Part shown: positions 7,182 to 10,527 of the stretch, in pieces
Layout: each line of letters begins with the position of its first letter
How positions within the stretch are numbered: position 1 is the stretch's first letter
Source of the DNA: Candidatus Micrarchaeia archaeon
Lineage (GTDB): Archaea; Micrarchaeota; Micrarchaeia; Micrarchaeales; CABMGC01
Assembly (NCBI GenBank): GCA_049966395.1
Contig: JBMFUT010000015.1
Coordinates: forward strand, 1 to 19,162
Length of the DNA: 19,162 nucleotides
Direction of reading: 5' to 3'
Notes under the pieces: generated by a model
Seen by the model: only the letters and a program-made list of their open reading frames with translations
What the model was told of the DNA's origin: nothing
Databases searched by the model: none
Translations under genes and position numbers: made by a program

Positions 7182-7574
7182 ATGGCAAGGGTATTCACAT
7201 TCAGGGGCAAAAGCATTGAAGAGTTGCAGGGCATGAGCATAGCCGACTTCGGCATGCTGCTTAAATCCAGGCAGCGCAGGGCGCTGCTCCGCATGGGCAT
7301 CGGCTACAAGAGCCTGATCAAGAAGGTTGAAAAGGCAAAGAAGAGCGGCTCCGAAAAGGTCATAAAGACCCATGCAAGGGAAGCCGTGATATTGCCAAGC
7401 TGGATAGGGATGAAGTTTGCAGTGCACAACGGCAAGGAGTTCAAGGAGATGCTCATAACTCCTGAAATGCTTGGCCACAGGCTAGGAGAATTCGCATTTA
7501 CTACTAAGAGAGTGTTGCACTCAGCGCCTGGCATCAGGGCGACGAGGGGCAGCAAGTTCCTCGCGGTGAAGTAA
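7182..7574 (+). CDS. rps19: 30S ribosomal protein uS19
   Basis: FTFRGKSIEEL, RQRR, IKTHAREAVILP, HNGKEF, EMLGHRLGEFAFT, PGIRATRGSKF. Confidence 0.98.
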   Translation: MARVFTFRGKSIEELQGMSIADFGMLLKSRQRRALLRMGIGYKSLIKKVEKAKKSGSEKVIKTHAREAVILPSWIGMKFAVHNGKEFKEMLITPEMLGHRLGEFAFTTKRVLHSAPGIRATRGSKFLAVK

Positions 7575-8251
7575 TGAAATATTCATTCAACATACAAAAG
7601 GAAGGAATTGTTCTTGCGCAGCGCTACGATATAGACGCAAGCTACAAGGACATGGGCGCGGTGTGCGACGCTATAAGATACCTGAAGGCGAATTACGCGC
7701 TCTCTCTCATAGACGACATAATAAACAAAGGCAGGCCCATACCTTACAGGAAGCACAACAAAGGCATGGGCTCAAGATCCGAACTTGGAGGCATGAAGGG
7801 CGCCTATCCTATAAAGGCCGCTAAAGAGGTAAGGAGGGTTCTTGTAAACGCCATTGCTAACGCAAACAGCAGGGGAATGCCTGGAGAGGAGATGTATGTT
7901 GTTCACGCCTTGGCCAACAAGACGAGAATAGAAAGGAGGCAGCCTTCGAGAGGCACGATTGCTTACGGAAGGGGAATGTACGGAAGGTCAGCACTGGCTT
8001 ATAGCGATTTGGAATACGCAAAAGTTGAGATAGGCCTTGCTGATGGAAGCGAAAAATGGCTTACGCATAACATGAAATATTTCATAAGGAAGCTGAACGC
8101 CAAGCGCGAGGCAGAGGAAGAAAAGGCAATTGAAGGCAAGCCGCGCAAGGGCAAGGCCACGCAGACCAAGCCAGCGAAAAGCGAGCCGCAGAATGTTGCC
8201 AAAAATGCCGAGGGCGCCACTGCTCAGCATGCCGAGAAGGTAGTCAAATGA
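7574..8251 (+). CDS. rpl22: 50S ribosomal protein uL22 with beta-hairpin insertion and C-terminal extension
   Basis: SYKDMGAVCDAIR, PIPYRKHNK, GAYPIKAA, NAIANA; lies between rps19 and rps3; TAATG overlap with rps19. Confidence 0.95.
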   Translation: MKYSFNIQKEGIVLAQRYDIDASYKDMGAVCDAIRYLKANYALSLIDDIINKGRPIPYRKHNKGMGSRSELGGMKGAYPIKAAKEVRRVLVNAIANANSRGMPGEEMYVVHALANKTRIERRQPSRGTIAYGRGMYGRSALAYSDLEYAKVEIGLADGSEKWLTHNMKYFIRKLNAKREAEEEKAIEGKPRKGKATQTKPAKSEPQNVAKNAEGATAQHAEKVVK

Positions 8252-8901: not shown

Positions 8902-9099
8902 ATGCACATGAAGGATTTGAATGCGCTTTCTAACGAGTCTCTCATAGCCAAGCTCAATGAAATCAGGCTAGACCTCGCGATAGAGAAGAGGAAGGTAGTT
9001 TCAACAGGTGTCGCGAGCAAAAAAGTTAAGACAAGAGAGATGAAGAGAACAATTGCGCAGATACAAACACTCCTAAAACAGAGAGGTGCCAAGTACTAA
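8902..9099 (+). CDS. rpl29: 50S ribosomal protein uL29
   Basis: 65 aa, KDLNALS...KLNEIRLDL...REMKRTIAQIQTLL; SD GGTGA upstream; follows rps3. Confidence 0.93.
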   Translation: MHMKDLNALSNESLIAKLNEIRLDLAIEKRKVVSTGVASKKVKTREMKRTIAQIQTLLKQRGAKY

Positions 9100-9404
9100 T
9101 GTCTGAAATTTGCCCCAGATGCGGTTTGCCTAAGGAACTCTGCGTATGCGACGTGCTTGACAGAGAGGCATCAAAGAAAATAAAGATATATACTGCTAAG
9201 AGGAAATTCAACAAGTTTGTCACAGTGGTAGAGGGCATGGCAGGCGACGAGCTTGAGAAGACGGCAAAGGAGCTCAAGCGCATACTCGCGTGTGGTGGCA
9301 CTTACAAGGACGGTTTCATAGAGCTGCAGGGGAGCCACAAGGAAGAGGTAAAAAAGGCACTGCTTGGGCTTGGATATTCTGAAGATAGCATAGACGTCGC
9401 TTGA
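9099..9404 (+). CDS. sui1: Translation initiation factor aIF1 / SUI1 homolog
   Basis: ICPRCGLPKELCVC N-terminal Zn-finger-like motif, KELKRILACGGTYKDGFIELQGSH; follows rpl29 as in other archaea. Confidence 0.96.
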   Translation: MSEICPRCGLPKELCVCDVLDREASKKIKIYTAKRKFNKFVTVVEGMAGDELEKTAKELKRILACGGTYKDGFIELQGSHKEEVKKALLGLGYSEDSIDVA

Positions 9405-9756: not shown

Positions 9757-10527
9757 ATGAGGAGTGCGTTGATTGTTTCGCTCATCGTGCTGCTTGCGCT
9801 TGCTGTGCAGCCAGCGCATGCCTATTTCAACATGACATACTTAAATGTCACAGTGGTTCCGCAGCTCAATGGGAGCGCGTACGTTACCGAGACTTACTAT
9901 CTTTACATAACAGGGCCTTCAGTTTACCAGTACAATTCCTACAGACAGGCAATAAATTTCACCATAAGCAGCTGGCAGCAAGCGCTTGGAGTAAGCGGTC
10001 TCACTGAGCACATAATAAACCCGTCAAGCAGCCTATATGACTTCAAGTTCCTTCCTGGGCCCCCACAGTATTCAGGCACCACTGCAACTGCTGAGATTCT
10101 TATGAGCTACTATGTCAACAATGTCACCTCAATAAACGAGACAGCACCAAGGCGCTTCGAGTATTCTTTTAACAGCTATGTTTTCAACTTTGCGCACACC
10201 GCAAGCGGCACGGCCTTGCCAGCAAACACGAGACTCAACATAATAATACCCAAAGAGGCAAAGGTCGTTTCTGTATATCCTTTGCCGGACTATCCATCGA
10301 CCGGGTTCATAGGCAACTACACTGGCAAGACGGAGTTCTCTTGGTACAGTCAGGAGCCGCTGTCAAAGTTCGTTTTCATTTATATAGTGCCGCAGTCTCT
10401 CGGTGACGAGGTGCTGAGCTACTTTTCCAACCTTTACAATAGGTATTCTGTGCTTCTTTACGTGCTGCTTGCAATACTCGTAGTGGGGGTTGTTGCCTAC
10501 CTCTACTTTAAGGTAGTGAGGGTGTAA
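9757..10527 (+). CDS. Hypothetical secreted, C-terminally membrane-anchored glycoprotein
   Basis: Sec signal peptide MRSALIVSLIVLLALAVQPAHA|Y, seven N-X-S/T sequons, beta-rich ectodomain, C-terminal TM helix VLLYVLLAILVVGVVAYLYF plus KVVRV. Confidence 0.85.
   Translation: MRSALIVSLIVLLALAVQPAHAYFNMTYLNVTVVPQLNGSAYVTETYYLYITGPSVYQYNSYRQAINFTISSWQQALGVSGLTEHIINPSSSLYDFKFLPGPPQYSGTTATAEILMSYYVNNVTSINETAPRRFEYSFNSYVFNFAHTASGTALPANTRLNIIIPKEAKVVSVYPLPDYPSTGFIGNYTGKTEFSWYSQEPLSKFVFIYIVPQSLGDEVLSYFSNLYNRYSVLLYVLLAILVVGVVAYLYFKVVRV

Follow-up and report, generated by a model that had tools for sequence, protein, structure and literature searches.

A lengthened uL22 tunnel hairpin and a linked 23S rRNA change in Micrarchaeota

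The ribosomal protein uL22 of the Micrarchaeia genome studied here is a lineage-level, conserved variant, in which the beta-hairpin of the exit tunnel carries extra residues at its tip, and this lengthening is old and lineage-wide. The longer uL22 finger is accompanied by a linked change in the adjacent RNA, which suggests that the tunnel wall has been rebuilt. A uL22 variant with a linked rRNA change is apparently undescribed. The loop length of uL22 is reported to be well conserved, judged from 29 sequences with structures (PMC9307626). Among the titles and abstract openings that were searched, which included few subscription papers, no long uL22 hairpin and no such 23S changes were found for Micrarchaeota; supplementary alignments could show the loop. 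Two archaeal clades naturally carry G2505A, A2062U, and G2576U, at nucleotides that are elsewhere investigated as sites of resistance or engineering mutations, and the hairpins of 33, 43, and 45 aa provide a natural three-state comparison for the extent to which an upper tunnel tolerates rebuilding. Since a Micrarchaeota co-culture exists (PMC8975820), a ribosome structure is feasible.

The uL22 Gene and Its Tunnel Hairpin

The window, that is, the whole stretch of 19,162 nucleotides that was analysed, contains the features listed in Table 1.

Table 1: Positions of the uL22 and uL4 features in the window.
Feature	Position	Strand	Remarks
uL4 tunnel loop, the other wall of the constriction, 62 aa	5546..5731	+	14 aa longer than Haloarcula
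uL22 gene	7574..8251	+	225 aa; S10-type operon, flanked by uS19 and uS3; fold agrees with known uL22 structures
Tunnel beta-hairpin segment H111-L155, 45 aa (canonical 35)	7904..8038	+	From alignment; model strands 108-122 and 144-156
12-aa insertion T128-S139	7955..7990	+	Directly follows the ancestral K/R-G tip; modelled extra strand pair 128-130/137-139, new tip 131-136
9-bp repeat copy 1, Y131-G-R	7964..7972	+	W in 47/48 orthologs read; incidental
9-bp repeat copy 2, Y136-G-R	7979..7987	+	Exact match to copy 1
uL22 C-terminal tail past the canonical fold, outside the hairpin	8039..8248	+	Predicted helix 165-188 (AlphaFold)

The gene was identified as uL22 both by its operon position and by the fold of its product, which has the long beta-hairpin of uL22 and whose model matched solved uL22 structures (e.g., 9znf_AQ: Z 20.6, rmsd 1.9, 147 aligned). 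In an HMM search the ORF matched two families only, scoring 96.9 against a cut-off of 137 for NF003260 and 79.7 against 79.85 for TIGR01038, and the match ended at residue 133, inside the insertion. The protein has its operon position, its fold, and both hairpin stems in common with archaeal and eukaryotic uL22 (TIGR01038, NF003260; PDB 1s72_R, 9znf_AQ, and 6skf_BV), but differs from them in this truncated HMM match, in its long C-terminal tail, and in its hairpin segment of 45 instead of 35 aa.

When the hairpins are placed in register, H111-L155 exceeds the 35-aa segment of Haloarcula (PDB 1s72_R) by 10 residues; a Desulfurococcales locus and the canonical representatives compared likewise have 35 aa. 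Relative to the 33-aa form of other Micrarchaeota, 12 residues are added directly after the K/R-G tip. The original prediction had read 32 hairpin residues from bases 7934-8029, had set a Haloarcula segment beside them for comparison, and had concluded that the hairpin is longer than usual. The reading is correct, the Haloarcula segment agrees with PDB 1s72_R, and canonical archaeal and eukaryotic uL22 proteins are indeed 10 aa shorter there. Both the alignment and the model place the extra residues at the tip, as predicted, although the proposed size of about 11 residues becomes 10 when measured against Haloarcula.

The 9-bp Repeat

The insertion was initially thought to look like a tandem duplication, since YGR is encoded twice by an exact 9-bp direct repeat. 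The repeat is present in the sequence at both positions given in Table 1. At the first YGR position, however, same-family (f1) orthologs have W in 47 cases and Y in 1 (48 readable of 49), and the repeat is therefore incidental; the two ortholog 9-mers have only 2-7 of 9 bases in common. In the whole window, 5 exact 9-mer repeats occur with a spacing of 9-30, there are two longer exact 10-mers within the uL22 gene itself, and the probability of identical codons, given YGR twice, is P = 0.08 with the codon use of the window. The 9-bp repeat is thus a W-to-Y change combined with common codons and is not beyond chance. It is the one observation that favors a recent tandem duplication or an assembly artefact in this genome as the source of the insertion, an explanation that is extremely improbable given the long loop in 87/87 same-order genomes read and the W of the orthologs. 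A duplication particular to this genome was accordingly dropped; the tip may have been duplicated in the distant past, when the Micrarchaeales arose.

Bacterial mutants resistant to macrolides are reported to alter the same hairpin of uL22, near H35, A1614, G2505, and C2610 (a 3-aa insertion in D. radiodurans, PDB 4WFN; a 2-aa deletion in S. aureus; PMC6685948). Those alleles are short, occur at the strain level, and are selected, whereas the Micrarchaeota change is of 10-12 aa, is fixed in the order, is conserved, and comes with fixed rRNA changes. A change of the resistance type would be a recent, strain-limited duplication of adjacent sequence; the long loop is order-wide and the repeat is absent in orthologs.

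Distribution of Hairpin Lengths

A uL22 protein was matched in 298 of the 301 genomes of the phylum, and the hairpin was read in 157. All 87 Micrarchaeales genomes read (families f1 and f2) have a hairpin of 42-49 aa: in f1 it measures 44-46 aa (50/50) and exactly 45 aa in 47 genomes, and in f2 it spans 42-49 aa (37/37). A second long-loop clade of Micrarchaeota, comprising 9 families, has a different loop of exactly 43 aa in 25/25 genomes, and the short-loop Micrarchaeota, comprising 18 families, have 33 or 34 aa in 45/45. The loop lengths mark the Micrarchaeota clades cleanly. Of another 20 genomes, 3 had a long-type and 15 a short-type loop, in each case the type predicted by the family, and 2 were unread. 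The K/R-G tip motif is retained in 86/87 Micrarchaeales, and a YG[KR] motif is found in the second long-loop clade as well (25/25), but the sequence of the tip differs among f1, f2, and the second clade.

Other hairpin lengths were observed elsewhere. The uL22 hairpins of P0036, P0125, and P0101 have 38, 42, and 47 aa, respectively, with a sequence unlike that of either long-loop clade, and could represent extra independent origins. Short hairpins of 31-32 aa occur across the phylum of G301 (30 loci; L157, L235-L263), and hairpins of 28-30 aa in other representatives (a subset of P0123-P0149). A 6-aa deletion in uL22 has been noted in passing for "all DPANN" (Forterre et al., bioRxiv 10.64898/2026.06.17.729505). 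Like the change described here it is an indel of uL22 in a region otherwise conserved in size, but it is a deletion, unlike the lengthening in Micrarchaeota, which the accessible part of that source does not mention. It probably corresponds to the forms of 29-30 aa, as we infer; the accessible part of the source gives no position.

Changes in the 23S rRNA

We aligned 39 full Micrarchaeota 23S genes with a 476-nt piece from the present genome, one DPANN outgroup gene, and one E. coli gene. The 476-nt piece, which belongs to the 3' part of the molecule and lies at the end of contig C8, was obtained by a pattern search and blastn after a full-length search came back empty. Positions follow the standard 23S numbering, checked against motifs, which equals the strain number plus one in domain V.

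The H35 loop falls short of the Rfam archaeal consensus by 2-3 nt in 39/39 full Micrarchaeota 23S genes. It is short by 3 nt in 16/16 Micrarchaeales, 9/9 members of the second clade, and 9/14 short-loop genomes, and by 2 nt in the remaining 5 short-loop genomes. In addition, 1 nt is missing at 2609-2612 (near 2610) in 40/40 Micrarchaeota.

As conserved we counted the 955 positions at which E. coli and the outgroup agree with no less than 90% of the short-loop group. G2505A is the sole position of the 955 that is changed in both long-loop groups. A pattern search for A2505 matched 109/301 genomes, namely, the present one, 33/53 of f1, 44/75 of f2, and 31/35 of the second-clade families, and 0/137 of the short-loop families, the family labels of unread genomes being extrapolated from the members read; two of the 109 matches (G197 and G029) are unpublished genomes. 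A neutral pattern was then run on 55 unmatched long-family and 25 short-family genomes and gave 10 more with A, three exceptions, and 21 short-family genomes with G, after 5 chance matches outside an rRNA context had been dropped; the remainder gave no match. Position 2505 is thus A in 119/122 long-loop genomes with a readable site, including the one studied here, and G in 35/35 short-loop genomes (21 from the neutral pattern and 14 aligned). The long-loop genomes that lack A2505 are G183 (G), G252 (U), and G297 (G). In a blind check on G232, A2505 was seen first and the hairpin was then read as 43 aa. The third exception, G297, has a 43-aa loop and two different 23S fragments (on C29 and C66), both with G2505, and is possibly misbinned.

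Each long-loop group has further changes of its own in the vicinity: A2062U (15/16; the site is unassembled in the present genome), C2064U/G2446A, and C2507G in Micrarchaeales, and G2576U, C2579U, and U2613C in the second clade. Apparent substitutions of Micrarchaeales at strain positions 2252-2257 were rejected because they are a deletion, and changes of the second clade at 859-864 were set aside since they look like an alignment shift. In 16/16 Micrarchaeales 23S genes (L281-L284, L288-L298, and L300), the P-loop/H80 region (E. coli about 2245-2260) has 2 nt fewer than its counterpart in other Micrarchaeota. The stretch of four G in their tRNA-binding P-loop lacks one base, and in 9/16 it terminates in A, which is surprising for the catalytic core; the region is unassembled in the present genome. 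Since the rRNA of Micrarchaeales is also divergent in this other part of the catalytic centre, A2062U may be unrelated to uL22. Position 2503 is C and not A in the 14 short-loop genes, the 9 second-clade genes, and the outgroup (L264-L280, L285-L287, L299, and L301-L303), and mostly A in Micrarchaeales.

Another explanation would be defence: the extension together with G2505A and A2062U could occlude the site of tunnel-binding antibiotics or peptides made by neighbouring microbes. Archaea, however, already have G at 2058, as observed in the alignments, a base linked to archaeal macrolide insensitivity, and the long loop is fixed throughout the order, unlike strain-level resistance alleles. We regard a defensive role as very unlikely, even though bacteria are reported to become resistant to macrolides through uL22 hairpin indels and A2062U (PMC6685948, PMC7049736). 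In vitro, E. coli ribosomes accept substitutions at G2505 and A2062 (PMC7049736).

Evolutionary History

Protein trees, which were built from uL3, uL4, uL23, uL2, uS19, and uS3, leaving out uL22, and in which the outgroup rows had only some of the genes, group Micrarchaeales with the short-loop families and not with the 43-aa clade (SH-aLRT 99). In the 23S tree, Micrarchaeales are nested among short-loop rows with modest support. A sister relationship of the two long-loop clades was rejected with the proteins (p-AU 0.001; LG+G4, 22 rows) and with the 23S (p-AU 0.029; GTR, 21 rows, 2505 columns dropped). We read the long loop as gained twice, independently, because the two inserts are unlike each other in both sequence and register, and because the 23S tree nests Micrarchaeales among short-loop rows. 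On the protein tree, one ancestral gain followed by loss is equally parsimonious, and the YG[KR] motif of the second clade also speaks for caution here.

Predicted Structure and Constraint on the Tip

The protein was modelled in its free form by AlphaFold2 on a 76-row alignment (mean pLDDT 88; 81 and 71 over residues 121-140). In the model the stem (108-122 with 144-156) is retained, and it is followed by a further strand pair (128-130 with 137-139) and a tip (131-136), so that in the free protein the extra residues prolong the hairpin past the old tip.

The tip is strongly conserved in one family and not in the other. Residues 131-137 of f1 have a mean pairwise identity of 94% against 56% for residues 1-110 (50 genomes), whereas in f2 the tip is less conserved than the globular domain (44% against 55%) and the insert is variable (37% identity, 42-49 aa). 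The variable length and sequence in f2 are what would be expected of a tolerated, largely neutral loop, for which trimming of the rRNA left slack, insertions became fixed in small, fast-evolving symbiont populations, and G2505A was coincidence or drift. The hairpin also varies in length in other small archaea (31-32 aa in the G301 phylum and 29-30 aa in several representatives), the P-loop has drifted in Micrarchaeales, and the uL22 loop of E. coli is reported to be dispensable for a near-normal translation rate (PMC4937340). However, the length is fixed at 43 aa in 25/25 genomes of 9 families and at 45 aa in 47/50 of f1, conservation of the f1 tip exceeds that of the globular domain, and the 1 position of 955 that is common to both clades is located in the tunnel entrance. 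A neutral loop is therefore, in our judgment, rather unlikely.

A Proposed Rebuilding of the Upper Tunnel Wall

The reading that we prefer, and for which we see the chances as evenly balanced, is that the longer hairpin extends along the wall in the direction of the catalytic centre and takes the place of trimmed RNA. The history would have begun with a trimming of the Micrarchaeota 23S, by 2-3 nt in the H35 loop and by 1 nt at 2609-2612, which is seen in the sequences, and would have continued with a lengthening of the uL22 tip by 10-12 residues in two separate clades, both observed with G2505A. The added residues are modelled to prolong the hairpin. It would point to the catalytic centre, and about five extra residue pairs would carry its tip 15-20 Å further, along the wall and in the space vacated by the trimmed RNA, where the Gly/Arg/aromatic tip could pack on rRNA near 2505, 2058-2062, and 2609-2611. 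The outcome would be an upper tunnel lined by protein, with an altered chemistry, and not necessarily narrower.

In E. coli, the H35 base A752 forms a pair with U2609 next to uL22 K90, where the tunnel is narrowest (PMC3299997), and in S. aureus, G2505, C2610, H35, and the uL22 tip are reported to shift jointly, the tip lying 16 Å from the macrolide site (PMC6685948). By these two sources, the RNA lost from the H35 loop and near 2610 adjoins the uL22 tip, and the reach of about five residue pairs fits the distance of 16 Å. Insertions in uL22 of E. coli slow translation (PMC4937340), so a fixed insertion probably needs room. On the other side, the extension does not accompany the loss of rRNA everywhere: in 14/14 short-loop genomes aligned, the H35/2610 rRNA is trimmed and uL22 is not extended, and the gap thus need not be filled. 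Also weighing against a rebuilt wall, the correlation of G2505A with the loop comes from two origins only. The variable insert of f2, the three long-loop genomes that lack A2505, the divergence of Micrarchaeales rRNA in the P-loop region, and the tolerance of G2505 and A2062 to substitution in vitro weigh in the same direction.

Remodelling of the exit tunnel, as originally proposed, fits the tunnel-wall rRNA changes found in the same lineages. As to the narrowing, gating, or rerouting suggested with it as possible, the accompanying changes (the shorter H35 loop, the 1 nt lost near 2610, and A2062U) remove wall mass and point to compensation rather than to net narrowing. The same loss of mass argues against the idea that the added residues protrude into the lumen, where they would narrow or gate the constriction and sense nascent chains, and A2062U is reported to relieve the constriction and open the tunnel in E. 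coli (bioRxiv 10.64898/2026.06.01.729415). The tip sequence, moreover, varies between f1, f2, and the second clade. Gating would agree with the position of the insertion at the tip that forms the constriction, with the strong conservation of the f1 tip, with a uL4 loop that is long too, and with the importance of uL22 K90 for TnaC stalling (PMC3299997); on balance we consider it unlikely.

A rebuilt wall can be put in more specific terms, which we offer tentatively, as possible rather than probable: the tunnel's most conserved section was rebuilt independently in two lineages, and the hairpin reaches the site of macrolides and arrest peptides, replaces the H35-2609 bridge, and contacts A2505 (and U2062 in Micrarchaeales). 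If this were true, a naturally occurring ribosome would have protein at its tunnel entrance and would sense nascent chains in a different way. Side cavities of the tunnel are reported to be plugged by eL39, the N-terminus of uL24, and a second uL4 loop (PMC13338714), where likewise protein reshapes the tunnel wall. Unlike the uL22 extension, those plugs act 50-70 Å from the catalytic centre and are common to archaea and eukaryotes; the accessible part of that source covers six archaeal species and does not mention DPANN.

Neighbouring Tunnel Proteins and the Operon

In each of the three uL22 groups, every complete row has a uL4 loop of 62-63 aa. Compensation by the length of uL4 or uL23 was rejected, since the uL4 loop is of one length throughout and no corresponding indel occurs in uL23. 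The outgroup L059 has a long uL4 loop too, and the conserved tip sequence of this loop differs in each uL22 group.

The protein eL39 was found in 287/301 genomes, including 50/53 of f1 and 73/75 of f2. It was not found in the present genome, which is 89% complete and gave a weak tblastn match on contig C3, opposite a long unrelated ORF. Because eL39 is kept in the long-loop families, the possibility that the uL22 extension replaces it was rejected. The eL39 proteins of Micrarchaeales (L305-L311) have lower scores and an altered central motif compared with other families.

The S10-type operon ends after uL29 and a SUI1/YciH gene (window 8902-9404), and downstream of it lies an unannotated membrane-anchored ORF (9757-10527). 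Judged from reading their sequence, further ORFs after the operon resemble the two phenylalanyl-tRNA synthetase subunits. In the C-terminal tail of uL22, the helix is predicted confidently and its start is conserved in family f1. The uL22 tails of animals and fungi are reported to have separate origins, that of animals contacting Sec61 (PMC11186639).
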